43,299 nucleotides of DNA from an uncultured Bacteriovoracaceae bacterium. GTDB lineage: Bacteria > Bdellovibrionota > Bacteriovoracia > Bacteriovoracales > Bacteriovoracaceae. Made by a program: the position numbers and the translations under genes. The notes under the pieces are model-generated. The model did not search any database and was not told where the DNA came from. It was given only the letters and a program-made list of their open reading frames with translations. Location of the stretch: assembly GCA_964416605.1 (NCBI GenBank), contig CAYQEW010000001.1:1-43299 (forward strand), read 5' to 3'. Below, in pieces: positions 9,738 through 43,299 of the stretch. The first letter of the stretch is position 1; each line of letters starts with the position of its first letter.

Positions 9738-9773
9738 CAAGAAGCCTCGAAGATATCTATAACACATCGATAC

Positions 9774-9858
9774 AAACCTGCGGGTGCCGCCTCATAAGAG
9801 GTGGCTGAGAAATACCGCTATAACTTGAATAGGCTAATACCTACGTAAGGAAGGAATC
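9774..9858 (+). promoter_or_regulatory. TPP (THI-box) riboswitch
   Basis: CGGGUGCC, then an 8-bp stem (gccgcctc/gaggtggc), then CUGAGA..UACCGC...CUUGAAUAGGCUAAUACCUACGUAAGGAAGG. This follows the THI-box consensus (GGGGUGC..CUGAGA..ACCC..CUGAUCUGGAUAAUGCCAGCGUAGGGAA). The 3' end overlaps the SD (aggaagg) of the downstream transporter gene. Confidence 0.8.
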
Positions 9859-9860
9859 AC

Positions 9861-10457
9861 ATGAAAAGAAAATCACTACTTGAGCTTTTTCGCTCTATTA
9901 CCCTTCAAGAATGGATCACCTGCGGCGTACTTGCCGCTTCACTCGGAGTCGCTTTCTGGAGCTGGACAATTATCCACGATCTCGTTAAACCATTTTTAAA
10001 GCCTCTTGGATTAAAATATCTCTTAGCTGGATTTTGGCTTATCTCTTCAGTGTTTTTAAGTTACCTCATTCGCAAACCAGGCGTGGCGCTCTTTGCTTCA
10101 ATTATCGCAGCGCTGGTTGAGGGTATGATCACTCAATGGGGATTAGGTGCCGTACTTTATGGATTTATTCAAGGACTAGGCGCAGAAATTATTTTTTTAC
10201 TTTTTGCTTACCGAATCTGGTCCTTACCTGTCCTGTGTGCTGCTGCCACAATGTCCGCTCTCACGAGTTATGCCTATGATTATTTAACTCATGATTATCA
10301 TCAACTCTCCCTCTCTTTTAATTTAGTACAACTTATTACTTTTATTTTTTCCGCAATTATTTTTGCTGCCATTCTTAGTCGCTATCTTGCTAAACGCCTT
10401 GTTAAAACAGGGCTCTTGGATACTTTTCTTATTGCTCAAGATAAAAACCATGAATAA
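9861..10457 (+). CDS. ykoE: ECF transporter substrate-capture (S) component, YkoE-type (thiamine/HMP precursor)
   Basis: 198 aa with about 6 TM helices. It sits directly behind the TPP riboswitch and ahead of a duplicated ECF ATPase and a T component, as in the Bacillus ykoEDC operon. Confidence 0.65.
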   Translation: MKRKSLLELFRSITLQEWITCGVLAASLGVAFWSWTIIHDLVKPFLKPLGLKYLLAGFWLISSVFLSYLIRKPGVALFASIIAALVEGMITQWGLGAVLYGFIQGLGAEIIFLLFAYRIWSLPVLCAAATMSALTSYAYDYLTHDYHQLSLSFNLVQLITFIFSAIIFAAILSRYLAKRLVKTGLLDTFLIAQDKNHE

Positions 10458-11772
10458 AACAATCCCTCCTTTTTCTTTTTACTATACACGCAGTAGAAAA
10501 AAAATTGTCCTTGAGCATGCACTTACTCTTTCTGATCAAAAAATTATTTGGCTAGTTGGAAATAGTGGATGTGGCAAAAGCACATTCTTGCATCTCCTCA
10601 AAGGTTTTTACCCTGAGTTTCTCCAGGGTGATTTATCAAATGACTCCATCAATATTTTAGAGAATGCTGCCTACATTGCGCAAAACCCTCTTTCGCAAAT
10701 ACTCCATGAGCGAGTGGGTGAAGAATTTTTTTTCTCCATGGAAAACGCCCATTACTCCCATGAACAAATGCGAGCAAAAAAATCATGGCTCAAGGAATTT
10801 GGCTTAGAAGAAAAAGAATTTGAAAAAACAAGCCACTTAAGTCATGGGCAAGCACAACGTCTTCTCCTTGCCTCCATGCTCGCCACAAAACCAGAATGGA
10901 TTATTTTAGATGAACCTACTGCTTTTCTCGATGATAGTATTCGCCATAGTTTTTACACAACTCTTCATTCTTTTAAAAAAAAAATGGGCATTATCATTAT
11001 TGATCATAACTTAAGTATGGCAAAAATCGCTGACACTTGTTTACATATTAATGATGAGGGCCTGATCACCGAAATAAGTGTTCAAGATTGGCTGCTCTTA
11101 CAGGAAAAAGAAATTCTGCAAAGTTCTTCTTTTGGATCAAATCTAATCGCACCAGCTCACACAACTGAACTCAGTGCAAAAAATTTATTGATTGGTTATC
11201 CTTCTAAGATATTATTTCGCGCCACATTTACTATCCAATCAAGAGAATGCGCTGTTCTCCTAGGGGACAACGGAAGCGGAAAGTCTACTTTTTTTAACAC
11301 TCTTGCAAGTATCCAAAAACCTCTGCAAGGTAAACTTGATTTTAAAGTAAATGAAAAACCAGCATCTATTCAGAACCATCTCGCCTATATTTTTCAACAT
11401 CCTGATAGTCATTTTTTTTTTGATACGCTAAGCGATGAATTAAAACAGCTTGGTCTAAATGAGCCTGACAGTGTCCTTAACGAAATGAATCTTCAAAACA
11501 GAAACCATCATTCTCCTCATCAATTATCAGAAGGACAAAAACGTCGCCTCACTCTTTTTTTTCCAGTGCTGCAAAAACGCTCTCTCATCTTAATGGATGA
11601 ACCAACTTTCGGACAGGACCATGTGCAAACTCAAAAAATTATTCAACTAATTCAAGAATTAAAATCTGCTGGCTACGCTCTTATTGTGATCACGCATGAC
11701 ATCAATGTTCAAAAAGAAATTGCAACCCATATTTGGAGAATCAAAAAAGGAGAACTAGAGCATGTCTCATAA
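10450..11772 (+). CDS. ykoD: ECF transporter fused double ATPase, YkoD-type
   Basis: Two ABC cassettes: Walker A GNSGCGKST and GDNGSGKST, signatures LSHGQAQRL and LSEGQKRRL, Walker B ILDEP and ILMDEP. The ATG at 10450 overlaps the ykoE stop by 8 nt. The 10363 start in the track would run through the ykoE C-terminus. Confidence 0.8.
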   Translation: MNKTIPPFSFYYTRSRKKIVLEHALTLSDQKIIWLVGNSGCGKSTFLHLLKGFYPEFLQGDLSNDSINILENAAYIAQNPLSQILHERVGEEFFFSMENAHYSHEQMRAKKSWLKEFGLEEKEFEKTSHLSHGQAQRLLLASMLATKPEWIILDEPTAFLDDSIRHSFYTTLHSFKKKMGIIIIDHNLSMAKIADTCLHINDEGLITEISVQDWLLLQEKEILQSSSFGSNLIAPAHTTELSAKNLLIGYPSKILFRATFTIQSRECAVLLGDNGSGKSTFFNTLASIQKPLQGKLDFKVNEKPASIQNHLAYIFQHPDSHFFFDTLSDELKQLGLNEPDSVLNEMNLQNRNHHSPHQLSEGQKRRLTLFFPVLQKRSLILMDEPTFGQDHVQTQKIIQLIQELKSAGYALIVITHDINVQKEIATHIWRIKKGELEHVS

Positions 11773-12475
11773 TCCTAGCGCCCCTATTCGCCAAAGACTC
11801 TTTCATGATGCTCATCTTGCTTTATTTTTTTTGATTTTTTTTATCGGCATTGCCTTGCCCATTAAATGGTATCTCATTATTTTGTGGGCTGCTTCTTTTG
11901 CGCTTCTTGCTTATTTGTTAAAAGTATCTCTGACGTTTATTCTGCAAAGTCTTAGCTGGGCTCTACTTCTTTCTTTGTCCGTTTGGCTCATCAACTTTTT
12001 CTTTCACAGTAAGCAGATTTCATCTGACGAAATCATAATTCGCGCCACTCACACAACCCTGAAAATTGGAGTCATCACTTGGGTCGCACTGCTCTCATCA
12101 AGAATGATTCATTTGCGAGATATTGTGATGCTCACTTTACAAAAAAAATGGCTACATCTTCCTATTGGCTATGCCTGCCTCTGTGGGCTAGGCTCGCTAT
12201 CACTTTTGCAAGCAGAGTCAAAACGCATTACATTAAATGCAAAACTTCGCGGCATAAAATGGCATCAAAGAATTCTCGTATGGATTCCACTTTTGATTTT
12301 TTCTCTTCGCCATGCACAGCGCGGAGCCATGAGCCTTCGCGCAAGAGGTTTGTATGAAAATAAAAGCTTTTACTATAACTACCAAGCAACGATGGCACAA
12401 ACCAGACGATTTATTTTTTTTATAACCTTATGGTTTATTTTCATCACACTGACTGCATACTTTTTAAAAAATTAG
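11762..12475 (+). CDS. ykoC: ECF transporter transmembrane (T) component, YkoC/CbiQ family
   Basis: 237 aa polytopic membrane protein that overlaps the ykoD stop. Its position and size fit EcfT. Confidence 0.65.
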   Translation: MSHNPSAPIRQRLFHDAHLALFFLIFFIGIALPIKWYLIILWAASFALLAYLLKVSLTFILQSLSWALLLSLSVWLINFFFHSKQISSDEIIIRATHTTLKIGVITWVALLSSRMIHLRDIVMLTLQKKWLHLPIGYACLCGLGSLSLLQAESKRITLNAKLRGIKWHQRILVWIPLLIFSLRHAQRGAMSLRARGLYENKSFYYNYQATMAQTRRFIFFITLWFIFITLTAYFLKN

Positions 12476-12951
12476 ATTCTTGGTTCAATTGAACAAGACA
12501 TGTACCATGTTGTCGAATAAGTACCCTGCACTAAACTAAGAGCTGGAACACCCGTGTAGGAAAGATACATATCCACATATCCTGTACCTGTTTGATCCTG
12601 CCAAGACGTCATGGGAATAGAAGGTACAACGTTACTCTCAAAATCCACTCCTTTTAAATTACTAAAAGAAAAAATCGCACTGGGCATCGTGGCATGAGTG
12701 AGGTGATCCGTTAAATCAAAAGTAGTTACCGTCGTGAAAGCCGAAAAATCAGTATTGTTAGCCATGGTAGCTCGTGCAATATAGAGATCCGTTTGCGAAG
12801 TTGTTAAATCTAAATTAGAGGCAATCGGTTCAGCATCGAGAGAAAGTTCACATGCAGGATCAATCCCCGCAGAAAGATTAATGCTGTCATTGCCTGCGCA
12901 ATACACTGCCTGAAAAATAATAAGAGCAAAAAGCATTATTATTTTTTTCAT
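12472..12951 (-). CDS. secreted protein, SCPU (spore coat U)/Csu-type fimbrial subunit-like; paralogue of 14577..15083
   Basis: Signal peptide. N-terminal Cys strand (PACELSLDAEPIASNLDL) and C-terminal YTGVPALSLVQGTYSTTWYMSC. The G-x-Y-s-t-t strand resembles the SCPU C-terminal motif. The assignment is by eye only. Confidence 0.4.
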   Translation of the reverse strand: MKKIIMLFALIIFQAVYCAGNDSINLSAGIDPACELSLDAEPIASNLDLTTSQTDLYIARATMANNTDFSAFTTVTTFDLTDHLTHATMPSAIFSFSNLKGVDFESNVVPSIPMTSWQDQTGTGYVDMYLSYTGVPALSLVQGTYSTTWYMSCSIEPRI

Positions 12952-13077: not shown

Positions 13078-13107
13078 TTGACACACAGTGCTTTGCAATG
13101 CTATGTA
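13078..13107 (+). promoter_or_regulatory. candidate sigma70-type promoter for padR (possibly leaderless)
   Basis: TTGACA (13078-13083), an 18-nt spacer, then TATGTA (13102-13107). The padR ATG at 13115 lies 7 nt downstream and has no SD. Confidence 0.35.
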
Positions 13108-13114
13108 CTATGTA

Positions 13115-13459
13115 ATGGAAAAACACTTTAATAATTGGCTGACTCAAATCAAAAAAGGATATCTCGATCTTTGTATTCTTATGCTTATTGAGGCAAATCA
13201 AAAAGCTTATGGATTTCAAATCATCGCTCTCTTAGAAGATTTAAATCTCTCCATAAAGGAAGGAACTCTTTATCCTTTACTCAACCGCATGACCGCAGAT
13301 GAGTTGCTGACGGCTAAATGGGAAACCGAAAATATTCAAGGAAATCCCAGAAAGTTTTATTCTATTACACCACAAGGATTAAAAACCTTAGAACAAATGA
13401 CTTTAGAATTTCAAAGCATGAATAAGATATTTACAAAAATAAAAAAAATTGGAGGATAA
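13115..13459 (+). CDS. PadR-family transcriptional regulator
   Basis: KGYLDLCILMLI...YGFQII...IKEGTLYPLLNRM..ELL...W.....NPRKFYSITPQGLKTLE is the canonical PadR winged-helix pattern. The start is uncertain (13088 GTG, 13103 ATG or 13115 ATG). Confidence 0.85.
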   Translation: MEKHFNNWLTQIKKGYLDLCILMLIEANQKAYGFQIIALLEDLNLSIKEGTLYPLLNRMTADELLTAKWETENIQGNPRKFYSITPQGLKTLEQMTLEFQSMNKIFTKIKKIGG

Positions 13460-14338
13460 ATGAAAAACACTGAATTAGAAAATTATCTCACAAAACTAGA
13501 AAAGGCTTTGGGGCCCATCGCGGTTTCCGAGAAAGCAGAAATTATTACGGAAATTAAAAGTCATGTTCTCGACTCTCTCGAAACAAACAGCTTGAAATCA
13601 ACAAAAGATATTTTAAGTAGTTTGGGAGAGCCGGAACAAGTAGCCAACAAATATCTCCTTGAACGTGGACTAGAGCCACAGAAGGCTCCGAAGCACCCCA
13701 TTATAAAATGGCTGACTATTGGTTTTCTCGGCACCATGACTCTTATTGTTCTTTCCTTTTTTCTCCTGCTTTGGAAATTTACTCCGATTATAAAAGTAGA
13801 TGAAAAAAGCGGTCATGTGCAAATTCTTGGAGGCTTGATTGATATCAATGATTCTGATGAAAAACTTAATAATGCAAAAGAATTAAGCGGTGATATCAAA
13901 ATTACAGAACAAAATAAAAATGACATTTTCTTTGATTTTGGCAATGCTCTCATCGATTTTGAAAACAATGAAGTCAGTAATGTCATTCGTTATGAATGCA
14001 AACTTGATCACGACGGAAAAATCAATGTGACTGAAAATAATAAAATTTATTTTGATTTCAAAAACACTGATGGAGTTAAATGTAATATTTATGTTCCTGA
14101 AAAATTAAATTTCAAAGTGAATGCGGCAAATGGCAAATTTACTTTTGATGAAATGGAAAATTCTCTGAGTGCCGATATTGCAAACGGCTTTGTTAGTTTC
14201 TATCCAAAAAGTACGGCTGAATATTTTTATGAAATGTCTGTTAAAAATGGCACCATCGCAAACTTTAAAAATGCCACGGACAAAACAAAAGCCTACGTCA
14301 TCAAAATTAACATTACAAATGGGAGTATCGCGCAATAA
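13460..14338 (+). CDS. PadR-associated membrane protein (DUF1700-like N-terminal helical domain, one TM, DUF4097-like beta-rich extracytoplasmic domain)
   Basis: Starts 1 nt after the padR stop. N-terminus ENYLTKLEKALGPI..EKAEIITEIKSHV is typical of DUF1700. TM is WLTIGFLGTMTLIVLSFFLLLW. The C-terminus has repetitive N-G-x-(I/F) beta-strand repeats. Confidence 0.6.
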   Translation: MKNTELENYLTKLEKALGPIAVSEKAEIITEIKSHVLDSLETNSLKSTKDILSSLGEPEQVANKYLLERGLEPQKAPKHPIIKWLTIGFLGTMTLIVLSFFLLLWKFTPIIKVDEKSGHVQILGGLIDINDSDEKLNNAKELSGDIKITEQNKNDIFFDFGNALIDFENNEVSNVIRYECKLDHDGKINVTENNKIYFDFKNTDGVKCNIYVPEKLNFKVNAANGKFTFDEMENSLSADIANGFVSFYPKSTAEYFYEMSVKNGTIANFKNATDKTKAYVIKINITNGSIAQ

Positions 14339-14576
14339 ATTCCTTACGGCTCTCTTGGCTCTACAGAGCAACTTGCATACCAGGTTGCTTGATAAACTCC
14401 ACTGATAAGGCTTTGGGAAGGAATGCCCGTCGTCGTTAATAAGCAAAGATGACATGCCTCAAAAAATACACAACAAAGAGAACATTCTTTTGAGGAAATG
14501 TCGTTTAAACTTATTATTTTTATTGAAAATAATTTTTTATTATTTTTTTCGATATAATGGCTTTAGAGGGGAATCT

Positions 14577-15083
14577 ATGAAAAAAATAATATTAATATTT
14601 CTATCTTTAATGTTAACTCAATCGCTCTTAGCAGGAACATCTGACTTCATAGATTTAACAACTAATATTGCGTTTAACTGCGAGATTGATATTCTTCCAG
14701 AAGCCATTGCTTCAAATCTTGATATAACTCAAAATCAGTCTCATTTAAAATTGTTTACTCTCAATATGGCAGGTAATGATCAAACACTCTTTACAGTCGA
14801 TATGCCCAATGAAGAAAAATTAATGCATAATTCTATGCTGGGACAATATTTTTCCTTTGCAAGCCTGGACTATAATTTAGCAACAAATATTTCAGGAAGC
14901 TCATCTTCAAGTTCTGGAAATCTCTCCTTTCCTCAATCTCAAAGCTATCCAATAAGTTTTCCTGGAAATGGTTTTACTTTTTCCGAAGATATTTTTGCCA
15001 ACTATACAGGAGTTCCTGCACTCAGTCTTGTTCAAGGGGTGTACTCAGCAACATGGCACTTTTCTTGTGGACCGATGATTTAA
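14577..15083 (+). CDS. secreted protein, SCPU/Csu-type fimbrial subunit-like; paralogue of 12472..12951
   Basis: AGAGGGG lies 5 nt before the ATG at 14577. Signal peptide MKKIILIFLSLMLTQSLLA. NCEIDILPEAIASNLDI and NYTGVPALSLVQGVYSATWHFSC align with the paralogue. Confidence 0.4.
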   Translation: MKKIILIFLSLMLTQSLLAGTSDFIDLTTNIAFNCEIDILPEAIASNLDITQNQSHLKLFTLNMAGNDQTLFTVDMPNEEKLMHNSMLGQYFSFASLDYNLATNISGSSSSSSGNLSFPQSQSYPISFPGNGFTFSEDIFANYTGVPALSLVQGVYSATWHFSCGPMI

Positions 15084-16605: not shown

Positions 16606-16608
16606 TGA

Positions 16609-16703
16609 GTGGTTTTCCAGTGAACACAAGTAGTTGTCTCCTACCGTTGCTTCCTTCCGAACCTGGCGGGTTCAGAGAAACTACCTCATTCACGGAAAAC
16701 CAC
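16609..16703 (-). ncRNA. ffs: signal recognition particle RNA (small 4.5S type)
   Basis: The minus strand reads GUGGUUUUCCGUGAA...CCGCCAGGUUCGGAAGGAAGCAACGGUAGGAGAC...UUCACUGGAAAACCAC. This is a single long hairpin carrying the conserved domain IV motif (GGAA tetraloop, GGAAGCA). A matching promoter lies just upstream. Confidence 0.8.
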
Positions 16704-16811: not shown

Positions 16812-16895
16812 GCTGGCGTGGTGGAATGGTAGACACGTGCGCTTGAGGTGCGTATGGAGCAATCTGTGGAGGTTCAAGTCCTCTCGCCAGCACCA
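16812..16895 (+). tRNA. tRNA-Leu (anticodon GAG), CCA encoded
   Basis: Acceptor stem gctggcg/cgccagc, 3-bp D stem, anticodon stem tgcgc/gcgta with loop TTGAGGT, long variable arm, T arm ggagg-ttcaagt-cctct, and 3' ACCA. Confidence 0.9.
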
Positions 16896-31101: not shown

Positions 31102-32070
31102 TTAATATCCCAAAATATACGCAAAAATAAGTGGTGCTACAATCGTAGCATCACTTTCAATCACATACTTTGGTGTGTGGATATCAAGTTTTCCCCAAGT
31201 AATTTTTTCATTGGGAATCGCTCCAGAATAGGATCCATAACTTGTTGTAGAATCTGAAATCTGGCAAAAATAACTCCAAAAAGGAACATCGTGCATTTCC
31301 ATATCCTGATAAAGCATCGGCACCACGCAGATCGGAAAATCGCCAGCAATTCCACCACCAATTTGAAAAAAACCAATTCCCTTACCTGCGCAATTTTCTC
31401 TATACCAGTTAGCAAGCCACACCATGTACTCAATGCCTGATTTCATCGTAGAAGTTTTAAGCTCATTTTTAATACAGTAAGAAGCAAAAATATTTCCCAT
31501 GGTTGAATCTTCCCAACCTGGAACAACAATCGGCAAATTCATTTCAGCAGCTGCTAACACCCATGAGTTTTTCGGATCAATTTGATAGTATTCTTTGAGA
31601 TCACCACTCAGGAGCATTTGATACATATACTCATGAGGAAAATAACGTTCATTATTTTTATCTGCATTATTCCAACGTTTAAAAATTTGCGCCTGAATAC
31701 GGCGAAAAGCCTCTTCCTCTGGAATACAAGTATCCGTCACTCGATTTAAGCCTTTTTCTAAAAGATCCCATTCGTCCTGTGGCGTTAAATCGCGGTAGTG
31801 AGGAATGCGCTCATAGTGATCGTGCGCCACAAGGTTCATAATATCTTCTTCCAGATTTGCACCGGTGCAACTAATAATATCGATTTGTCCGGCGCGAATC
31901 ATCGGCGCCAAAATCTTTCCCATTTCCGCAGTACTCATGGCTCCTGCTAGAGTGACCATCATTTTACCGCCAGCAGTCTTATGAGCGACATAACCTTTAG
32001 CCGCATCGACAAGAGAAGCAGCATTAAAATGCAAATAATAATTTTCCATAAACTGTGAAATGGTTTTCAT
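31102..32070 (-). CDS. deoxyhypusine synthase-like protein (DHS / homospermidine-synthase-type aminobutyl transferase)
   Basis: 322 aa. TLAGAMSTAE...IISCTGANLEEDI and GGGI..DF blocks. IPNEKITWGKL aligns with the eukaryotic EAVSWGK active site and keeps the catalytic lysine. Confidence 0.8.
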   Translation of the reverse strand: MKTISQFMENYYLHFNAASLVDAAKGYVAHKTAGGKMMVTLAGAMSTAEMGKILAPMIRAGQIDIISCTGANLEEDIMNLVAHDHYERIPHYRDLTPQDEWDLLEKGLNRVTDTCIPEEEAFRRIQAQIFKRWNNADKNNERYFPHEYMYQMLLSGDLKEYYQIDPKNSWVLAAAEMNLPIVVPGWEDSTMGNIFASYCIKNELKTSTMKSGIEYMVWLANWYRENCAGKGIGFFQIGGGIAGDFPICVVPMLYQDMEMHDVPFWSYFCQISDSTTSYGSYSGAIPNEKITWGKLDIHTPKYVIESDATIVAPLIFAYILGY

Positions 32071-32077
32071 AAATATC

Positions 32078-32548
32078 CTATTGTAAAAATTTTCCGTAAA
32101 TTACTTTGTCATCTCCGTCGCGATAAAAATCTTTGAGACGAGCTACTTCGGTGTAACCAACCTTAAAATAAAAATGGCGAGCCGCCTCATAATCAGAGGT
32201 TCCGGAGGTTTCAGCATAAAGAGCTTTCCCGCCTTCTTCTTTAACTTTTTGCTCTGTCATGTGAATCAACTGTGAACTTAAGCCCTTGCCCTGTTGATCT
32301 TTGGCCACCGCAATCCAGTAGAGATCATATCTTTTATTCGTTAGAGGAATTTCACTAAAGCACGTATAACCGACAATGCGATCATTCTCTCTCGCGAAAA
32401 TAAAAGAATAAGCTGCGGGATCAAGAAGCGCTTCTTCTACTAATTCTTGAGCGGTTTGCACTTCAATCTCATTAAACACTTTTACTTGTGCCACCAGTTC
32501 TCTAATTTTTTCGGGATCATCTTTTTTTAACGTTGTATCAAAAATCAT
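32078..32548 (-). CDS. GNAT-family N-acetyltransferase
   Basis: 156 aa. YWIAVAKDQQGKGLSSQLI is the acetyl-CoA-binding motif A (Q/R-x-x-G-x-G/A). Its ATG overlaps the upstream stop (ATGA). Confidence 0.85.
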   Translation of the reverse strand: MIFDTTLKKDDPEKIRELVAQVKVFNEIEVQTAQELVEEALLDPAAYSFIFARENDRIVGYTCFSEIPLTNKRYDLYWIAVAKDQQGKGLSSQLIHMTEQKVKEEGGKALYAETSGTSDYEAARHFYFKVGYTEVARLKDFYRDGDDKVIYGKFLQ

Positions 32549-33475
32549 AGCGTTCCTATTTTAACAATTTTTTCAATCAGCTGATTATAGCTAATACCTT
32601 GGCGCTCTGCGGCTGCAATAAATCCTGAGTCACTGGTGATACAAGGATTAGGATTGACTTCTAAAACATAGGCTTCGTTGTTTGCATTAAGTCTAAAATC
32701 AACCCGTGCATAGCCCTTTAATCCAAAAGCGTCCCAAGATTTTCTCGCAAGATCTACCACGAACTGATACTCCTCGCCTAAGAACTCTCTCGTACTGTTT
32801 TCATACTCAAAACTTCCTTCTGTCCATTTGCAATTATAATCGACAATATGGGGTTTACCTTCTGGATAGTTAAAAACAATTTCCGAGATACCGAGCACTT
32901 CCGAATGATTTTCGGCTCCAATTAAACCAACCTGAAGCTCTCTGCCTTCAATAAATTCTTCGGCAAAAAAATCAAATCCATACTGAGTTCTTTTTTCTTC
33001 AATTTTTTGTAAAACATTATCATACCCTGTCACAATGCTCTTTTCATCAATCCCGATAGAAGCATCTTCGGCACAAGCTTTAACAATATACGTTCTCTCA
33101 TCTTTTTTAAAATCACCAGGATGATTAATCGCAAAAGACTTCATAAGAGATTTGGCAATTTTTTTATCTGCCGCTAAAGCAAGTGCGCGTGAACCATTTC
33201 CTGAAAAAGGAATTTTAAGAGCTTCTAAATAAGAAGGTATTAAATAAATAAACTGATCAGAGCCCTTAAAAGATTCTACTAAATTAAAAATAAAATCTAT
33301 CTTGTGATGACTTAAATAATCAGCCAAAAACATTGAAACAATTCTGCAAAGGCAGTTCATCGACTTGATGATGGTTTGCCTCTAAGCCCAGCCTAACTTC
33401 TTTCACTTGGACAAGTGTATCAAGATCATCTTGTCTCTCAGAGCTAGGAGCATTGTAGATAATTAAAATATTCAT
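32545..33475 (-). pseudogene. D-Ala-D-Ala-ligase-like ATP-grasp ligase, split by a 1-nt frameshift (or assembly error)
   Basis: A 51-codon N-terminal frame (33475..33320, MNILIIYNAPSSERQDDLDTLVQVKEVRLGLEANHHQVDELPLQNCFNVFG*) is followed by a 271-aa ORF in the adjacent frame. Together they align with the full-length paralogue. C-terminus ARVDFRL..NEAYVLEVNPNPCI. Confidence 0.65.
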
Positions 33476-34458
33476 GAGATCTTATAACGGTTTAGAGCTG
33501 AATCGACAATTCTCTTTATAAGTTCCTTATAAGGTAAATTGATTTGCTTACAAAGCAAAAGAAGATCCGATCGATCCGGATTTAAACCGGCGAGTGGATT
33601 GACCTCGATAAAAGAAGGAACCCCTTGAGCATTACAACGAATATCAAATCTTGCACAATCTCTAATCCCAAGAGCTTGCCAACTTTCTAGTACAAGTTTA
33701 CCCACCTCACTGGCAATGCTATCAGTCGCTAACCTGTATTCGACGAGGGTTTCACAGTTTTCTTTATTGAAGTAAGTGTGGCCTCCCACTTCTGCACCTT
33801 GTTTTAAAATAACCTCTAAAACCCCTAGCACTTGAGGGCCTCTATCCCCGCCAACTACTCCCACAGTAAATTCACGGCCCGGCAAATACTCTTCCACTAA
33901 AACGGGTTGTTTGAAATCAGCTAAAAGAACAGAAGTAACTTCTTCTAATTCTTGCTTGGTATGGACAAGTGATTTTTGCGAAACTCCTTTGCCAGTGCCT
34001 TCCGCAACTGGTTTCGCAAAAAGAGGAAAGTTAAGAGAAAGAGTACTCAGGTCATTAAGATGAGAAATTAAATGATAATGAGCAGTTGTGAGGCCACTAT
34101 CTCTTATTTGTTTTTTCGCAAGAGCCTTATTATGACAAATAATCAAGGTTTCAGTACTCGAAAAAGTGTAAGGTATTTGATAGGCGTCAAGAAGAGCGGG
34201 AACCTGTGCCTCTCTTGCAAGGCCGTGAAGTCCTTCTGCGATATTAAAAACAAGATCCCATTTTTTTCCCTGCGCGAGCAAGTTCACAAGGTTAAAAATA
34301 TTTCCTATGCGCTCTACGGTGTAGCCTAAATCTTGAAGAGTACTCTCAATTGCATGAATGGTGTCTTCTGAATCAAACTCTGCTAATTGTTCTGAGTTTA
34401 GATTGAAATTCTTATAATCTGACTTAAGATCATAAACAAATCCAATTTTAAGACTCAC
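33472..34458 (-). CDS. D-Ala-D-Ala-ligase-like ATP-grasp ligase (substrates unknown)
   Basis: 328 aa. HGLAREAQVPALLDAYQIPYTFS, KPVAEGTGKGV and ARFDIRCNAQGVPSFIEVNPLAGL follow the Ddl-family pattern. Its GTG start overlaps the kamA stop (GTGA). Confidence 0.8.
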   Translation of the reverse strand: MSLKIGFVYDLKSDYKNFNLNSEQLAEFDSEDTIHAIESTLQDLGYTVERIGNIFNLVNLLAQGKKWDLVFNIAEGLHGLAREAQVPALLDAYQIPYTFSSTETLIICHNKALAKKQIRDSGLTTAHYHLISHLNDLSTLSLNFPLFAKPVAEGTGKGVSQKSLVHTKQELEEVTSVLLADFKQPVLVEEYLPGREFTVGVVGGDRGPQVLGVLEVILKQGAEVGGHTYFNKENCETLVEYRLATDSIASEVGKLVLESWQALGIRDCARFDIRCNAQGVPSFIEVNPLAGLNPDRSDLLLLCKQINLPYKELIKRIVDSALNRYKIS

Positions 34459-35798
34459 AAATAAATTCCATTTTCACTTAAGCGACGCCCTTTTTTTCTC
34501 AACTCATTTTGCGCTTTGCCCAGATTACCCATTGGATCAGGGTAACGATAGGTTCCTCCCTCAAAATTAGTCAGGAGTAGATCATCACCATCTCTTCCCA
34601 CAATATAATCTGGAAGAAGAGGAATTTTTCCTCCACCGTTGGGAGCATCTACAACAAATTGCGGTATCGCATAACCCGTGGTGTGTCCTCGTAAGCCTTT
34701 AATAATTTCCAGGCCCTTTTCCACGGAAGTTCTAAAATGAGAAGAACCTGAAACAGGATCGCACTGATACAAATAATAAGGTTTAACCCGAGCCATCAAA
34801 AGCTTGTGCATAAGCGATTTCATCGTCTCAACATTATCGTTAATATCTTTTAACAGAACGGTTTGACTGCCTAAAGGAATCCCCGCATCAGCAAGGCGCG
34901 CAAAAGCCTCTATTGACTCCGGAGTAATCTCATCGGGGTGAGCCACGTGAATGCTCATCCAAAGCGGATGATATTTTCGTAAAATGCGAGTGAGATTTTT
35001 TGTAATACGCTGAGGCATGACAATCGGAATCTTGGTGCCAATGCGGATAAATTCCAAATGCTTTATTTTTCTTAGGCGATTCAGAAGCCAATCGAGTTTC
35101 TCATCGCCAATACTCAGCGGGTCTCCTCCCGATAAAAGGCAATCGCGAATTTCAGGGTGAGCCTCAATATATTGAGCGGCTTTTTCCCATTGAGCCGTAT
35201 TAAAACTGTATTCGCCGTTAGTTTCTCCTACCATGCGCGAGCGAGTACAGTAACGACAATAGGTAGAGCAAAAGCCCGTTGTCAAAAAGAGAACGCGATC
35301 TGGATAGCGATGAACCAGTCCCGGCGTTGCAGTATCGTGGTCTTCCCCTAACGGATCTGGATCTTCACCTGGGGTCTGAATAAATTCATCTCCTACGGGA
35401 ATATGAGTGCGTCGTAAAGACTGCATCGGATTCTTTGGATCAAGAAGAGAGAGATAATAAGGAGTAATGGCAATGGGCAGATTGGCGGTACGCTTATCGA
35501 CAGCCTTGCGCTCTTCATCCGTTAAATCAACAAAACAACTGAGGTGTTCCGTCGTTCTAATGCGATTTCTGACCTGCCACTTCCAATCATTCCAATCAGC
35601 AGAGCTAATGCCTGGGTAAAATTTTTTAATGAAGTTTTTGGTATTTTGACTTTGAGGGAATTTATTAATCAGATTTTTTGATACAGGAATATAAATGATG
35701 TTACCATCGAGAGAGCCGCACTGGGCGCTATTTTCAGCGTTTTTCTCCACCTTGCTAGGAGGCTCACCTTCTTCTATCTTTAGTTCGGAATTATTCAT
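34455..35798 (-). CDS. kamA: lysine 2,3-aminomutase family radical-SAM/PLP enzyme
   Basis: 447 aa. W.DWKWQVRNRI, the radical-SAM cluster motif CSTYCRYCTRS, LLSGGDPL and YLYQCDPV..SSHFR are KamA hallmarks. Confidence 0.9.
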   Translation of the reverse strand: MNNSELKIEEGEPPSKVEKNAENSAQCGSLDGNIIYIPVSKNLINKFPQSQNTKNFIKKFYPGISSADWNDWKWQVRNRIRTTEHLSCFVDLTDEERKAVDKRTANLPIAITPYYLSLLDPKNPMQSLRRTHIPVGDEFIQTPGEDPDPLGEDHDTATPGLVHRYPDRVLFLTTGFCSTYCRYCTRSRMVGETNGEYSFNTAQWEKAAQYIEAHPEIRDCLLSGGDPLSIGDEKLDWLLNRLRKIKHLEFIRIGTKIPIVMPQRITKNLTRILRKYHPLWMSIHVAHPDEITPESIEAFARLADAGIPLGSQTVLLKDINDNVETMKSLMHKLLMARVKPYYLYQCDPVSGSSHFRTSVEKGLEIIKGLRGHTTGYAIPQFVVDAPNGGGKIPLLPDYIVGRDGDDLLLTNFEGGTYRYPDPMGNLGKAQNELRKKGRRLSENGIYL

Positions 35799-38231: not shown

Positions 38232-38894
38232 ATGATGAAAAAAATTTTCTTAGTACTCTTTCTACTCTCCCAAAGCTTATTGGCTTCCACGAATCAAGAT
38301 GGTGGAACATGGCTCGGTCTCTTTAACCGAACACAAAACAATAAAGTAGGAAGCTTTGCTATTTGGAATGAATTGCAATTGCGCTTTAATACCGATGTTT
38401 CGGGCATGCAGCAACTTCTCTTTAGACCCGGTGTGATTTATCAATACAATCAAAACAATGATTTTGGACTTCTCTTGGGCTATATCAATACTAAGAATTT
38501 TGCCAAAGATAAAAACACAAATGAATACAGATTTACTCTTCAACATCAGTATTACCAAACTTTTGGCGAAGGCAATAAAATAACTTTTAGATCGAGACTT
38601 GAGCACCGTTTTCTAGAGCAAGCTGGGCCTCTTGATTTACGCTTTAGAGAAATGATTCGTTATAGTAAAAACCTTACTCCTAAAACTCAATTTGTTATTT
38701 GGGATGAGCCTTTTCTTAATTTCAATAGACCAAGCTGGGTTTATGATAGTTTTTTTGAGCGCAACCGCTTTTTCATTGGAACCAATATCCAAGTCGGTAC
38801 GATTAAACTAGAAGTGGGGTATCTCAATCAATATATTCCTCACAAAGGTGCTGACACCATGGAACATATTCTTCTTACTTATTTTATCTACTAA
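38232..38894 (+). CDS. outer-membrane beta-barrel protein, DUF2490-like
   Basis: Signal peptide, repeated R-F/R-L strand pattern (LQLRFN, TFRSRLEHRF, DLRFREMIRY) and a C-terminal aromatic ...LLTYFIY. Confidence 0.4.
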   Translation: MMKKIFLVLFLLSQSLLASTNQDGGTWLGLFNRTQNNKVGSFAIWNELQLRFNTDVSGMQQLLFRPGVIYQYNQNNDFGLLLGYINTKNFAKDKNTNEYRFTLQHQYYQTFGEGNKITFRSRLEHRFLEQAGPLDLRFREMIRYSKNLTPKTQFVIWDEPFLNFNRPSWVYDSFFERNRFFIGTNIQVGTIKLEVGYLNQYIPHKGADTMEHILLTYFIY

Positions 38895-39642
38895 ATTTTT
38901 TGACAATAAAAACAATACGGCGGTTCCTGTCTAGATTATCCCAAAGTACTTTCCCTTCACTGTCAAAACTTTTAAAAGCTGGACGAGAACTGCCGAATCC
39001 AACAGCTTTTAAATGGCTTTCTTCCACACCCGATTCCATAAGTTTGCGAACAACATAAGAAGCTCTTGCGGCACTTAGCTCCCAATTACTCGGATAGGTT
39101 TTATTCATTGATATTTTACGATAATCACAATGCCCTTCAATTTCAATAAAAATATCATCCTTTTGTGTCAAAATAATATTCATGATTTTTTTTAAAATAT
39201 TAAGTCCATCAGTGGTTGGAACAGCACTAGCTGTCTCAAAAATTTTCTCCCCCACCATTTCAATTTCAACAGTTTCTTTTTTTTTATTTTTTTTAACTTC
39301 TGCAAAAGATGAGATATTTTTTTGCAGCTCTATATAAAGTAAGCTAAGTGGTTCCCACTCAAACTCTGCCTCAACTTTTGGTATTTTTGCAGAATAACTT
39401 TTGCCAACGTAACCTCTTCCTGAACGTGCTTTAGAAGATGAGTTTATTTTTTGACTTGTAAATGATTCTTGAATTTTTTCAGCCTTTTCCTGAAAAGTTT
39501 TATCATCAAAGTTTGCGAAGGAAACTAGTAAAATAAAAAAACACGCAATAAGTGTCATTAAATCTGCAAGAGAAGTTAGCCAAACACTATCATCGCTTTC
39601 GATGTTTCGTTTTTTACGACTCAAGAGTTTTTCTCCAGTCAT
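38884..39642 (-). CDS. motB: MotB-like stator protein (OmpA-like peptidoglycan-binding C-terminus)
   Basis: TM segment WLTSLADLMTLIACFFILL carries the conserved channel Asp. The C-terminus has IEGHCD, SNWELSAARA and NRRIVFIV. Confidence 0.8.
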   Translation of the reverse strand: MTGEKLLSRKKRNIESDDSVWLTSLADLMTLIACFFILLVSFANFDDKTFQEKAEKIQESFTSQKINSSSKARSGRGYVGKSYSAKIPKVEAEFEWEPLSLLYIELQKNISSFAEVKKNKKKETVEIEMVGEKIFETASAVPTTDGLNILKKIMNIILTQKDDIFIEIEGHCDYRKISMNKTYPSNWELSAARASYVVRKLMESGVEESHLKAVGFGSSRPAFKSFDSEGKVLWDNLDRNRRIVFIVKKFSR

Positions 39643-40393
39643 AGCGATGAGAAGCAGGCAATCTTGCGTTTAATTCTTCAATTATTTCAATAGTGCTGAC
39701 CTTTTGATTGATCAAGTCTAGTCCTCTTATAATTAAACTGTTTTTTAATGCCATATCATTCATGGTTTCGACGAGGTTTTCGCTCAAGGGCAAAAGAAAA
39801 AAATTGGCAATAATAACCCCATAAAGTGTCGTGATAAGACAAATTGCCATCGCAGGCCCCATGCTTTTCATTGCATCAGATGTCCCAAGGTTTGAGAGAA
39901 GAACAATCATACCAATAGTTGTCCCCATCATTCCAAAAGCTGGCGGATATTTTCCGAGGGTTTTAATCTTAGAAGCATCGGCAAAATACTCATCTTCGAT
40001 TTGCTCTGATCGTTGTTTAATAATATTAAGAGCTTTTTCAAAAGGCATAATTTTTTCACTTAAAAGCAATAATGAATCATTCAAAAACTGATCATTTGAT
40101 TTGTTGGGAAAATTTTTATGGATTTCATAATGTTTTGCCGTCGATACAATTTCTTTAATTGTATCTGTAAACGAAATATTTTTTCCTCGTAATATTTTTA
40201 AAAAAAATGCTTTAGAGAGATAATACATTTTATCTAATTTAATAGAGAGAGCCATAACTGCAACGGTTCCGCCAAGAACGATAAAAAGTGAAATACCATC
40301 CCAAAAAAGTAACAAATTACTAGAGGAAAATTTTAATCCAATAATAATTACTGAAATACCTGCCATTAAACCAATCAGAGTATATTTATTCAT
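39614..40393 (-). CDS. motA: MotA/PomA-like proton-channel stator protein
   Basis: 259 aa. Two N-terminal and two C-terminal TM helices, a cytoplasmic loop, and GKYPPAFGMMGTTIGMIVLL (MotA/TolQ/ExbB signature with conserved Pro). Confidence 0.8.
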   Translation of the reverse strand: MNKYTLIGLMAGISVIIIGLKFSSSNLLLFWDGISLFIVLGGTVAVMALSIKLDKMYYLSKAFFLKILRGKNISFTDTIKEIVSTAKHYEIHKNFPNKSNDQFLNDSLLLLSEKIMPFEKALNIIKQRSEQIEDEYFADASKIKTLGKYPPAFGMMGTTIGMIVLLSNLGTSDAMKSMGPAMAICLITTLYGVIIANFFLLPLSENLVETMNDMALKNSLIIRGLDLINQKVSTIEIIEELNARLPASHRYDWRKTLES

Positions 40394-40402
40394 ATCATCC
40401 TT

Positions 40403-41302
40403 TTACATTTCTGCTTGAGCAGAAAATATAATTGAATCCGTATATTCTCCCTCAGGTAAAATTTTATTCGCTTCAGGCACCACTACTTTTAAAGAATAAG
40501 TTTGACCATCGAGATTAGCCGTCTCGAATGGACTAAAAACAATTGGAGATCCCATTGAGTTTTCCAAAGAAACCTTCTGGTTATTAATAAAGAAGTTATA
40601 GGGCATTTGAGCCCCATAGGGTGATTTCATTGCCCCTCCATTCAATGAGTAGCATTCAACGGAATAAGGAACATTTGATTTCACTACCATATCTGCTTCA
40701 ACAACTTTTTCAGAGTCAAGGTTACCTAAATTTTTTTTCACTCCTCCACTTCCTGACTTAAAGTTTTCTCCTTTTTCTAAAACTTTTAATTGAACTTCAA
40801 TAGGAATTTCAATCGCTACATTAAAATTAAGCACGGCAATAGCACTAGCCAGGAACTCTTTAGAATCAGTTGTAATATATGCCGTAACAGTATCTAAATA
40901 ATTCCCATAATAGGTTGGGACAGGTCCCTCATAGCGAAAAAAAACTCGATGAATTTTTTCTTTTTCTCCTGTGCTAAAACTTCCTTGCAAATATTCATTA
41001 GCAGAAGAATTTCCCGCTTCTTTTAAAATATATTGAAAATCATTCTTCGTATAAATATTATAATTAACCGATTTATCGAGATATTTAGCAGTTCGCAGAT
41101 ACGTTGTACCTGAGTTTCCAGCGAAGGAAATAAAATAGTTAGGACACGCCACTTCTGTATTGTTTTTAATATGAAGATCCGTAAATACCCATAGTTCATT
41201 TTCTTGGTAAGTATAATTAATATTAATTTGCTGCATAGAAAGATTGCATGCCATTGTAAAAGTACTCATCAAAATAAAAATTAATTTTTTAATTACTTCC
41301 AT
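40403..41302 (-). CDS. two-domain SCPU-like pilus subunit (CsuE-like tip/adhesin candidate)
   Basis: Signal peptide. The two beta-rich halves end in YYGNYLDTVTAYITT and PEGEYTDSIIFSAQ, which resemble the G-x-Y-x-D-t-v-t-v terminal strand of SCPU domains. It lies immediately after the usher gene, as csuE follows csuD. Confidence 0.45.
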   Translation of the reverse strand: MEVIKKLIFILMSTFTMACNLSMQQININYTYQENELWVFTDLHIKNNTEVACPNYFISFAGNSGTTYLRTAKYLDKSVNYNIYTKNDFQYILKEAGNSSANEYLQGSFSTGEKEKIHRVFFRYEGPVPTYYGNYLDTVTAYITTDSKEFLASAIAVLNFNVAIEIPIEVQLKVLEKGENFKSGSGGVKKNLGNLDSEKVVEADMVVKSNVPYSVECYSLNGGAMKSPYGAQMPYNFFINNQKVSLENSMGSPIVFSPFETANLDGQTYSLKVVVPEANKILPEGEYTDSIIFSAQAEM

Positions 41303-43299
41303 TAAAAATCACCTTTTTGTATTCCATATTAATTTGACCTAAATCTATAAAACCATCGACATCATTCTTAAGTGAAATATTAGCAGGTAAAAAACTATCA
41401 TCAAAGAGGAGCACGTAATCGCCCTTTGGAACTCCATCAATATTAAAACTTCCTTGATCATCTGTGAAAATTTCTGCAAGCATTTTTCCATTTTTATCAT
41501 TCAGCTGAGCATATTTATACTGGTAGGGCGCACCATCCAAGAAAATATGACCACTGGCAAAGACTTCGGAAAGAAGTTTCATTTGCACTAAATGACCACT
41601 TTTATAGCTTGGAACAACTACACTAATTTCATTGTCAAAAACTTCTCCCGCCTTAAGCTCTTTTTTATTGAGCCAAACTCTGTTGCGACGATAATCGCCA
41701 ATTGACGTGAGAACTCCATTAAACACACCGACCTGAGAAACACTGTCATTATCTCCCGTTGGATTTAAATTAATTGTTCGATTCCATTTAGTTCCAGATA
41801 GAGAGACTAAAGCAAAGCTACCCGAAAAAGGACGCGTTAGAGCAAATTTTTTCTGCGCAAATGCTAAGGCTGTCCCAAATGTCATACTATCTGTTTGTGA
41901 TTTGTTTCCAGTAAAATTAGACTTGTGTTTTATACCAGCGGTAAAATAAGGATGAAAATAATCCGCAGAAAAATCTCCACTTATAATATCTTTTGCTCGA
42001 TGCATTTCAGCATTAATATTAAAACCACGTTGAGCATAGGGAGAGCGATAACCCATTCTTAAACTTTGCTCATCGTGTATTGGATCAATACTAGAATAAA
42101 GTGATGTCTTTTTTTGATTAAAACTAATATTAAATAATAAAGAAAAATTATCTTTCGCATTAGAAATAAAATCATTAGAAACAGTCATATTGAAACGATA
42201 TTTTCTGGCAATTGTTTTGGAAATATTAAATCTTATTCCATAAAGATCATCAGTATAAAGAAAATCAGTTCCATAAAGCGATCCATTAATTGTCACTATA
42301 TCAGTAAAGGTAAAGCCTGTACCAATAACGGCATCATACTTTTTGGGAGCATCAATCGTATAATTGCCTACATCATTAGAAAATTTAGGAGTGTAGGCAT
42401 TAAAATTCAAATCAACTCTTCTAAAGGGACTTGTATTTTCCGTATTCAGTAAGTATTCCCAACCGAGATTGAGAGCATAGCCTTTTTTCGTTTCATTTTT
42501 AAATCCATTTGTAGCAAAATCTGCAATAATGTTTCCAACGTCTGTTCTAATAATATTTTGATTTCCTGCTAAATAAAAATTATTCGAAATATTAGAATAA
42601 GCCCCTGTTGTCCAAATTTTTGTGACTCCTACTTTATGATAAAAATTTAAAGAAAGTGGATCTCCTGGAGTATATTTATAAAATTCATTCTTTCCTTTAT
42701 TTAAATAACCTAGCGAATAAGAAAATTGATTTAATCCACGTTCTAATAAATTTCGATTTCCAAATTCATTATACTTAATTTCTTCCACTTCATTGGTTCC
42801 AAGTTTACGTGTTTTAATAGTGATACTATTAAAGCCATGGTTAAGAATAATATTTTCAAAGGAATGTTTTCCCATGCGTAAAATTTTAGAAAAAATAATA
42901 CGGCCATTCACAAATATTTCGACAAATGATTCTTGTTTTAGAAAAAAAGAATATTCTTCTAACGGTACAATATTTTTATTAGGATCCATTCCGAAAACTC
43001 TATCTGCTCTTACTCCAAGATAATGGACACTTCCTTGGAAGCCGATTCCATTAGACGTTAAATCACCTAAGTGCATTCTCGTCCTTGCTTTAGCAAAATC
43101 TCTAGTAAAAAAGAAATCATACAATGTCCAGTTAGGAGAAAGACTATTTTTGCTCGCGGCGCCTTCAAAAACAAGGCCCCATAAATTAATAGCTCCATCA
43201 AGTGAGAGATTTGAACTGACGTTAGGATAAAGGGATTGATTAATAAATGAATTTACATAAAAAGAAAAAGAATTGGGTGTTACAGAATAACTATCGGAT
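41289..43299 (-). CDS. fimbrial outer-membrane usher protein (N-terminus lies beyond the window end)
   Basis: HLGDLTSNG..F.G....GVRADRVFGMDP, SFVEIFVNGRIIFSKIL..G.HSFENI and ITIKTRKLGTNEVEEIKYN....NLLERGLNQFSYSLGY match the usher plug and barrel N-terminal pattern. SFALVSL, GDYRRNRVWLNKKEL and VVVPSYKSGHLV match usher C-terminal domains. The frame is open from 43124 to 43298. Confidence 0.8.
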   Translation of the reverse strand, partial: SDSYSVTPNSFSFYVNSFINQSLYPNVSSNLSLDGAINLWGLVFEGAASKNSLSPNWTLYDFFFTRDFAKARTRMHLGDLTSNGIGFQGSVHYLGVRADRVFGMDPNKNIVPLEEYSFFLKQESFVEIFVNGRIIFSKILRMGKHSFENIILNHGFNSITIKTRKLGTNEVEEIKYNEFGNRNLLERGLNQFSYSLGYLNKGKNEFYKYTPGDPLSLNFYHKVGVTKIWTTGAYSNISNNFYLAGNQNIIRTDVGNIIADFATNGFKNETKKGYALNLGWEYLLNTENTSPFRRVDLNFNAYTPKFSNDVGNYTIDAPKKYDAVIGTGFTFTDIVTINGSLYGTDFLYTDDLYGIRFNISKTIARKYRFNMTVSNDFISNAKDNFSLLFNISFNQKKTSLYSSIDPIHDEQSLRMGYRSPYAQRGFNINAEMHRAKDIISGDFSADYFHPYFTAGIKHKSNFTGNKSQTDSMTFGTALAFAQKKFALTRPFSGSFALVSLSGTKWNRTINLNPTGDNDSVSQVGVFNGVLTSIGDYRRNRVWLNKKELKAGEVFDNEISVVVPSYKSGHLVQMKLLSEVFASGHIFLDGAPYQYKYAQLNDKNGKMLAEIFTDDQGSFNIDGVPKGDYVLLFDDSFLPANISLKNDVDGFIDLGQINMEYKKVIFNGSN

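Follow-up and report, generated by a model that had tools for sequence, protein, structure and literature searches.

Pilus and stator genes at the end of the window

The stretch of DNA analysed here, hereafter the window, covers positions 1 to 43 299 of contig CAYQEW010000001.1 from an uncultured Bacteriovoracaceae bacterium (assembly GCA_964416605.1), and the subject of this report is the point near its end where the genes of a chaperone-usher pilus run into those of a MotA/MotB stator. Four consecutive open reading frames (ORFs) on the minus strand of 38884-43299 encode an usher, a putative tip subunit, MotA and MotB (Table 1). The usher and tip genes overlap by 14 nt, the tip TAA is followed by nine nucleotides, AAGGATGAT, in which AAGGA is the Shine-Dalgarno (SD) sequence, the motA ATG comes directly after these at 40393, and motA overlaps motB by 29 nt. 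The coordinates and junctions reported in the initial annotation were confirmed from the ORFs and the junction sequence, and its claim that no hairpin lies between the pilus and stator genes agrees with a consensus scan, which found no terminator-like site at the tip-motA junction or at any other junction of the four genes. The arrangement was found again in a 6-kb Logan contig (L001) and, independently, in a JGI contig of a diverged sister strain (L006, a 22-kb locus read from a 47-kb contig), and thus is not an assembly artefact. In the sister strain the tip-motA junction is AAGGGGATGAT, 11 nt long as against 9 nt in the window, with the SD intact. This kept junction, together with the tight packing and the absence of a terminator, makes co-transcription of the pilus and stator genes, as initially proposed, likely.

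Table 1. Coordinates of the pilus and stator genes and of other features in the window
Feature	Position	Strand	Remarks
Usher (outer-membrane assembly platform)	41289..43299	-	C-terminal 669 of 778 residues; gene continues past the window end
Putative tip/adhesin pilus subunit, 299 aa, two-part	40403..41302	-	N-terminal half SCPU
Tip-motA junction, 9 nt, AAGGATGAT	40394..40402	-	Sequence read directly; carries the motA SD
MotA/PomA-type stator A subunit, 259 aa	39614..40393	-	PF01618
MotB-type stator B subunit, 252 aa	38884..39642	-	PF13677 and PF00691
Pilin-like secreted protein, 159 aa (tentative)	12472..12951	-	Iterated HMM E 2e-68; paralogue of the L006 pair
Second pilin-like paralogue (tentative)	14454..15083	+	Same family HMM E 1e-74; likely start is an internal ATG near 14577
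PadR/HAAS regulator pair	13088..14338		Flanked by the two pilin-like genes
DUF2490 gene	38232..38894	+	Convergent on motB
Outer-membrane-protein gene, 163 aa	37734..38225		Adjacent to the DUF2490 gene
TPP riboswitch	9770..9868	+	Precedes the transporter operon
ECF/ABC-type transporter operon	9861..12475
Small SRP RNA	16608..16702	-
tRNA	16812..16892	+
DUF11-repeat/Chlam_OMP6-like protein, 533 aa	19427..21028	+	Probably cell-surface
DUF11-repeat/Chlam_OMP6-like protein, 1042 aa	21107..24235	+	Probably cell-surface
Radical SAM/ATP-grasp cluster	31102..35798	-	Conserved in the sister strain

At the other end of the stator pair, the DUF2490 gene overlaps the 3' end of motB by 11 nt and is absent from the sister strain, in which the neighbouring 163-aa outer-membrane-protein gene is split into two ORFs.

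Assignment of the chaperone-usher block

The usher fragment has no direct match in Pfam, NCBIfam or the PDB. It is 99% identical to a full-length protein of 778 aa from the JGI contig (P0121), which matches PF00577-bearing proteins with E-values from 3e-9 to 9e-6 in a search of 5.8 billion sequences, and a family profile built from five usher proteins matches FimD with an E-value of 3.9e-24 over residues 102-816, which is nearly the full length. Taken together, P0121, these distant PF00577-bearing homologues and the FimD match identify the fragment as an usher. A metagenome scan with P0121 alone returned no relative.

In the 299-aa subunit encoded after the usher, residues 13-141 match SCPU (PF05229) with 33.1 bits against a cut-off of 22.4, and the N-terminal half alone scores 25 bits; the C-terminal half has no match to Pfam families in general or to SCPU in particular, and SCPU is the sole match of the whole protein in searches of Pfam, NCBIfam and the PDB. 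Of the two domains initially ascribed to this SCPU-like subunit, only the N-terminal half is thus recognisable as SCPU. The protein is weakly similar to a 304-aa product encoded after the usher at a distant locus, L007, the only one of four distant usher relatives for which the gene context was read. The L007 cluster runs from subunits through chaperone and usher to the 304-aa subunit, the next gene lies on the opposite strand, and no motAB adjoins the usher cluster.

Looking upstream for a chaperone gene, as had been advised, succeeded in the sister strain. The gene (L006 8958-9701, outside the window) encodes 247 aa and has a weak PapD_N match (E 0.009); its product is homologous to the L007 chaperone (E 1e-8), and a profile of the two chaperones has CsuC as its sole PDB match (E 1.1e-4). 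Between chaperone and usher, L006 9714-9938 encodes a single-pass membrane protein of 74 aa (orf74) with a Cys-rich CCKTQSCC stretch, and we know of no counterpart in Csu-type clusters. Adjoining the operon in L006 and divergently transcribed are genes for two secreted pilin-like proteins of 151 and 157 aa. These small proteins and the 159-aa protein of the window have in common a signal peptide, an N-terminal Cys and a C-terminal PALSLVxGxYS...C motif; none of the pilin-like proteins of window or L006 matches Pfam or SCPU, and in hhalign they match the subunits of L007 weakly (E 1.3e-4, 37 columns). Those encoded in the window may serve this usher as additional subunits. Domain and profile searches of usher, chaperone and subunit found no extra domain able to receive force.

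The usher profile matching FimD, the chaperone matching CsuC and the SCPU subunit support the family call made at the outset, namely that the block is an archaic, Csu-type chaperone-usher system. In common with the Csu system of Acinetobacter baumannii and other archaic (sigma) systems, it combines a PapD-like chaperone, a FimD-related usher, an SCPU subunit encoded after the usher and small secreted pilin-like proteins nearby. Unlike Csu, however, it is extremely divergent, since the window and L006 proteins have no direct Pfam match to Usher or PapD above threshold, its pilin-like genes are divergently transcribed and not recognisable as SCPU, a membrane protein is encoded between chaperone and usher, and the whole is embedded in a stator operon.

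A nine-gene run in the sister strain

L006 places the four genes in a longer run of nine on one strand, encoding a TPR protein, a 512-aa protein (X512, P0126), a small outer-membrane barrel (omp), the chaperone, orf74, the usher, the tip, MotA and MotB, with intergenic distances of -29 to +62 nt; a giant fn3 protein and the two pilin-like proteins are encoded together on the other strand. Divergence between window and L006 amounts to a dS of 0.18-0.46 in the four shared genes, whereas dN/dS is 0.03 for the usher, 0.04 for the tip and 0.06 for motB, with all four values falling at 0.03-0.06, the same as in housekeeping neighbours. All four genes are therefore under purifying selection, and the dN/dS of 0.06 rules out decaying stator genes. 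GC content and GC at third codon positions (GC3) of the chaperone-usher genes are the same as in neighbouring genes and no direct or inverted repeats flank them, so that signs of a recent horizontal insertion are lacking. Given the purifying selection, the kept junction, the neighbour-like GC3 and the lack of flanking repeats, the pilus-stator layout is old, settled and selected.

Identity of the stator pair

MotA matches PF01618 with 62 bits. MotB matches the MotB_plug family PF13677 with 44 bits and OmpA (PF00691) with 56 bits, carries SLADLMTLI with Asp27 in its transmembrane helix, and contains a peptidoglycan-binding NWELSAARA motif, read from the translation; the channel Asp and the OmpA-like domain had both been noted initially and both hold. 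The best NCBIfam matches are PomA and MotP for MotA, and MotD and MotS for MotB, all below the equivalog cut-offs (PomA 107 bits against 341, MotD 117 against 283), and the matches to ExbB and TolQ are marginal. MotA aligns over its whole length with the solved structures of MotA and PomA. Its AlphaFold2 (AF2) model, built with ten homologues (pLDDT 75), has four cytoplasmic helices between transmembrane helices (TM) 2 and 3, at residues 53-69, 75-92, 102-112 and 118-148, and in a Foldseek search with this model the best 23 matches are all flagellar MotA or PomA with TM-scores of about 0.7, while ExbB and TolQ reach 0.3-0.4 (maximum 0.42).

Structural features that define flagellar ion transporters (FIT) of the TGI4 type have been described (Puente-Lelievre et al. 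2025, PMC12505986). The modelled MotA has the four TM helices and at least four cytoplasmic helices between TM2 and TM3 of a FIT A subunit, and MotB has the Asp, the plug/linker and the OmpA-like domain of a FIT B subunit. Sequence and predicted fold thus both place the pair with flagellar stators, as an ion-driven stator of the PomAB/MotPS-like kind, and not with the ExbB/TolQ group. This agrees with the stator family call and answers the comparison to flagellar, TolQ and ExbB proteins that the initial annotation had recommended. The rotor-facing charges are a different matter. Taking E. coli MotA R90/E98 and PomA R88, K89, E96 and E97 as reference, the PomA positions are occupied in the window MotA by K/H/F/P, following a three-residue deletion. 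At MotA residues ~86-100, most of the other 63 members of the clade (described below) keep a YR[KNS]GE motif, placed where PomA has its rotor contacts R88/K89, and a few members have substitutions in it, whereas the window and L006 read KHY---EIH, and the loss of the motif within the clade is confined to this lineage.

In sum, the pair shares with PomAB, MotPS and MotCD (FIT TGI4, PMC12505986) the full-length MotA architecture, the prolines of TM3 and TM4, the Asp, plug and OmpA elements of MotB and an overlapping A-then-B gene order, but differs from them in scoring far below the equivalog cut-offs, in its replaced rotor charges and in its surroundings, as neither the window nor the 22-kb L006 locus contains flagellar genes.

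Related stator loci across Bdellovibrionota

To place the locus in context, 64 MotAB loci from Bdellovibrionota were compared, 63 of which came from a scan of one genome per species; the window genome is not among the scanned species representatives. ORFs were called in the loci, family hidden Markov models (HMMs) were iterated, and partner families were counted in the 34 loci having at least 17 kb of sequence. The nearest MotA relatives (L002-L004) are 47-48% identical and all belong to Bacteriovoracaceae or Halobacteriovorax. Usher, tip and chaperone are absent from their loci, which do contain a TPR lipoprotein, a protein of about 640 aa (hereafter X) and giant fn3 proteins homologous to products of L006 genes, and the 1208-aa fn3 protein of L006 matches the 1347-aa protein of L002 with an E-value of 1e-128. 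The TPR and omp proteins of L006 match the respective family HMMs with E-values of 2e-51 and 1e-44; the genes for these two and for the fn3 protein are outside the window.

The same set of partners recurs across the clade. It consists of an outer-membrane barrel of about 200 aa (omp, in 23 of the 34 loci), a TPR lipoprotein of about 200 aa (22), X (25), an outer-membrane protein whose long, periplasmic linker is rich in K, E and P (f558, in 20) and giant fn3/HYDIN-like proteins (21), and every one of the 34 loci holds at least one of these families; all of them surround a single MotAB pair in L029, L031 and L051. Examples of the module, among L002-L069, are L018 6718-11500, L015 5221-11700 and L006 6263-8950. 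By contrast with these partners, usher or tip genes occur in none of the 34, nor in any of the 64 loci, and, even with the threshold at E<=10, a general usher HMM found no usher-like ORF in the 63 loci of the genome scan and matched only L001, L006, L007 and the window. Conserved synteny between usher and motAB, which the initial annotation had named as a test, thus failed to appear, and the usher of L007 likewise has no adjoining motAB. Within the 22 kb read from the sister contig, no f558 was found.

In a neighbour-joining tree the window lineage is the basal long branch of the MotA clade. In its basal neighbours L018 and L045, motA immediately follows omp, and the gene order of the closest basal relatives is TPR, X, omp, motA, motB; in L006 the chaperone-usher block sits exactly between omp and motA. 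The L006 order, the omp-motA adjacency in L018 and L045 and the absence of usher genes from all 64 loci are most simply read as a block lying inside an ancestral TPR-X-omp-motA-motB operon.

Most scanned genomes have a single locus of this stator clade. In genomes with two, namely L052 (Halobacteriovorax sp. ZH2_bin.1) with L010, L018 with L023, and L032 with L062, one pair adjoins X, and the other, which has no X, adjoins genes for giant fn3 proteins and for f183, a protein of 190 aa; this suggests sub-functionalisation of the two stators. Neither X, omp and f558 nor the recurring neighbour families f534 and f183 have a Pfam or NCBIfam name. Moreover, the 25 most frequent Pfam families among 150 stator-neighbouring ORFs include no flagellar family, and we therefore rejected the idea that these neighbourhoods are flagellar clusters.

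X, a FliG-like protein encoded with the stators

Members of the X family are 512-770 aa long and have a classical signal peptide, a periplasmic part, one further transmembrane helix and a FliG-like C-terminal domain. A profile of 28 members matches the middle and C-terminal domains of Thermotoga maritima FliG with an E-value of 6e-5, and its C-terminal part alone does so with 6.8e-6; among solved structures FliG-MC matches best, over 167 residues, and in the alignment with 3ajc the ENPE of X falls at the position of the FliG EHPQ. In addition, the full-length profile weakly matches TM2 and the C-terminal tail of Salmonella FliF (E 0.02). Taken individually, 13 of the 28 members match MgtE_N and 3 match FliG_N; single-sequence PDB searches of X members gave no match, and a profile of the N-terminal periplasmic domain detected no relative. 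Because a signal peptide and one transmembrane helix precede it, the FliG-like region is predicted to be cytoplasmic, which would put it beside the cytoplasmic domain of MotA.

X512 is the putative copy in this lineage. Its architecture and position fit the X family, it has a weak MgtE_N match (E 0.009), and the locally built X HMM aligns to it in two colinear segments (E ~1e-5 for a single target); these three observations link it, if weakly, to the family. A phmmer search of 1.84 billion representative proteins with X512 found only X512 itself, an alignment of three X sequences retrieved nothing but the query from 5.8 billion sequences, and the AF2 model of X512 made without an alignment (pLDDT 39) is unusable for a fold search.

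X resembles parts of several known machines. The FlgY-PflA, MotE-MotC/MotK as well as FlbB-FlcB pairs of E-rings and stator scaffolds likewise combine an MgtE_N/ARM-like protein with a TPR protein and are encoded with or act on stators, and Bdellovibrio bacteriovorus has an E-ring (PMC13023049). E-ring proteins are recognised as small proteins that begin with a signal peptide or TM helix and end in a periplasmic MgtE_N domain, and their genes usually lie beside fliJ or fliK. X does have MgtE_N, but at about 640 aa (512 here, 512-770 in the family) it is larger, its ARM-like domain is by inferred topology cytoplasmic, its match is to FliG-MC rather than to a single MgtE_N unit, and no fliJ or fliK lies near. 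With FliF and FliG, X shares a transmembrane helix, a FliF-C-tail-like segment (E 0.02) and a FliG middle/C-like region (E 7e-6), and engineered FliF-FliG fusions are functional; it differs in having no detectable FliF ring-building domains and in its very low similarity, and no FliM/FliN or export-apparatus genes are found nearby. The AglRQS-Glt machinery of Myxococcus and the GldLM-T9SS-SprB machinery of Bacteroidota also encode a 5:2-type motor together with TPR, outer-membrane and giant adhesin-like proteins, but those motors are TolQR-like or GldLM, whereas the motor here is a flagellar-type MotAB with a peptidoglycan anchor, and no Glt, Gld or type IX secretion system (T9SS) homologues were seen.

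Interpretation of the pilus-stator arrangement

The reading that we favour, with a probability of roughly 0.7, is that a pilus block is nested in a stator operon, so that the two are co-expressed while the stator acts on a FliG-like partner and not on the usher. The four genes of the window would be the 3' end of a nine-gene operon as in L006, and MotAB would represent, in this lineage, a stator clade found throughout Bdellovibrionota with TPR, X, omp, f558 and giant fn3 partners. An archaic Csu-like block would lie between the omp gene and motA, with two pilin-like genes at the divergent promoter side, and pilus and motor module would probably be made simultaneously. The pilus itself would be assembled independently of energy as usual, through donor-strand exchange from the chaperone at the usher, and the stator would work on either the flagellar rotor or X. 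On grounds of parsimony we infer that the direction of change was insertion of the chaperone-usher genes into the operon. Stator and pilus are probably not mechanically coupled. Among the options raised initially, that of a stator paralogue merely sitting next to the pilus genes comes closest, except that the relationship is reversed, with the stator belonging to the ancestral operon and the pilus genes being the lineage-specific addition; a shared regulon for attachment and motility is possible. The components are of known kinds, and it is their arrangement that is new.

Several observations weigh against this reading. The settled layout, with neighbour-like GC3 and no repeats, and the presence of chaperone-usher-related genes at two places in the module are compatible with functional integration. 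The loss of YR[KNS]GE from MotA, the divergence of X and the absence of f558 suggest that the module was remodelled at about the time when the pilus genes arrived. Two strains sample the lineage, so the choice between insertion here and loss elsewhere depends on parsimony. Furthermore, the link of X512 to the X family is weak (BLAST not significant, hhalign E 0.016), and the consensus scan found abundant weak promoter-like matches in the AT-rich DNA of the window, which makes an internal promoter possible.

The initial annotation had also raised an accessory energised by proton-motive force (PMF). MotAB would then directly supply the power by which the chaperone-usher fibre is rotated or retracted or its secretion gated. 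The tight tip-motA coupling, kept in two diverged strains, the purifying selection on all genes and the altered rotor-facing motif of MotA would all suit such a machine, but it is the least supported of the options and in our view very improbable: no usher or tip accompanies any of the 64 stators, the L007 usher has no adjoining motAB, none of the pilus proteins offers a domain to take up force, the same operon encodes a FliG-like stator partner, and chaperone-usher assembly needs no energy at the outer membrane. An energised chaperone-usher pilus, if true, would overturn the rule of energy independence, and the comparative evidence makes that unlikely. A variant of this idea, somewhat less improbable and still doubtful, is that omp, TPR, X and MotAB form a self-contained, non-flagellar motor acting on surface fibres, which recruited the chaperone-usher pilus as its output in this lineage. 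The missing f558 and the re-shaped rotor interface of MotA would fit a remodelling toward pilus output, and if true, a chaperone-usher pilus would for the first time be coupled to membrane energy, and the machine would be a candidate motor for surface motility in Bdellovibrionota.

What the stator module itself does bears on the partner assumed in the favoured reading of a pilus block nested in a stator operon. As a sub-case of that reading, the pair could be a plain flagellar stator with a scaffold, in which omp, TPR, X and f558 would correspond, in Bdellovibrionota, to periplasmic scaffolds of stators, comparable to FlgY, MotE or FlbB with the TPR proteins PflA or MotC, or to MotX, MotY, FlgO and FlgP. 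MotAB would drive the flagellum, and the pilus would share the promoter only, so that attachment and motility would form one regulon. We regard this as a tentative possibility, worth taking seriously while falling short of an even chance. The stator is FIT-type, most genomes have one locus of the clade, three loci hold all partners, and E-ring proteins set a precedent for MgtE_N-like and TPR proteins that work with stators. All three pairs of B. bacteriovorus reportedly contribute to flagellar motility (Morehouse et al. 2011, as cited in PMC3526173). Halobacteriovorax pairs fall within the clade, and a single motAB pair has been reported for H. marinus SJ (PMC3526173). Against it stand the predicted cytoplasmic location of the ARM/FliG-like domain of X, where the heads of FlgY and MotE are periplasmic, the length of X, three to four times that of FlgY or MotE, its best solved match to FliG-MC, the lack of flagellar families among frequent neighbours, the division of two-pair genomes into one pair with X and one without, and the missing charged rotor motif of the window MotA.

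Alternatively, the module could be a separate, ion-driven and non-flagellar motor that spans the envelope, in which X as a kind of rotor, MotAB, TPR and outer-membrane proteins would drive the giant fn3/HYDIN-like proteins or the pilus for surface motility or adhesin movement. This appears unlikely, if less so than a motor that took on the pilus as its output. In its favour, the components range from the inner membrane across the periplasm to the outer membrane and the giant proteins of the surface, and most loci encode them together; X resembles FliG and the tail of FliF in some features, the partner families carry no NCBIfam or Pfam name, the chaperone-usher genes turn up at a locus without f558, and this lineage's MotA and X have each diverged. 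Moreover, the motor and adhesins of Bdellovibrio gliding are still unidentified (PMC13104615). However, X512 yielded no usable model and the N-terminal domain of X no relative, the only flagellar stator that Halobacteriovorax has probably belongs to the clade, and the adjacency of the giant proteins may be coincidence.

With the pilus genes nested in a stator operon, an adhesin system within a motor operon offers a test case for how predatory bacteria may regulate attachment and motility together. More broadly, flagellar-type stators of Bacteriovoracaceae and other Bdellovibrionota travel with proteins unnamed in curated libraries, which may be a stator scaffold or clutch or an envelope motor. 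This module bears on the extra rings in the high-speed flagellar motors of Bdellovibrio and like organisms (BALO) and on the drive of Bdellovibrio gliding, and we consider the FliG-like module around Bdellovibrionota stators to be the lead most worth following.

Other features of the window

Elsewhere in the window, the cluster at 31102-35798 encodes a lysine-2,3-aminomutase-like radical SAM enzyme, two D-Ala-D-Ala-ligase-like ATP-grasp enzymes, an acetyltransferase and a deoxyhypusine synthase. The combination is unusual, the sister strain retains the cluster in full, and its product may be a modified polyamine or a beta-lysine compound. The remaining features in Table 1 are two adjacent genes for DUF11-repeat/Chlam_OMP6-like proteins, a TPP riboswitch ahead of a transporter operon, and a small SRP RNA with a tRNA.

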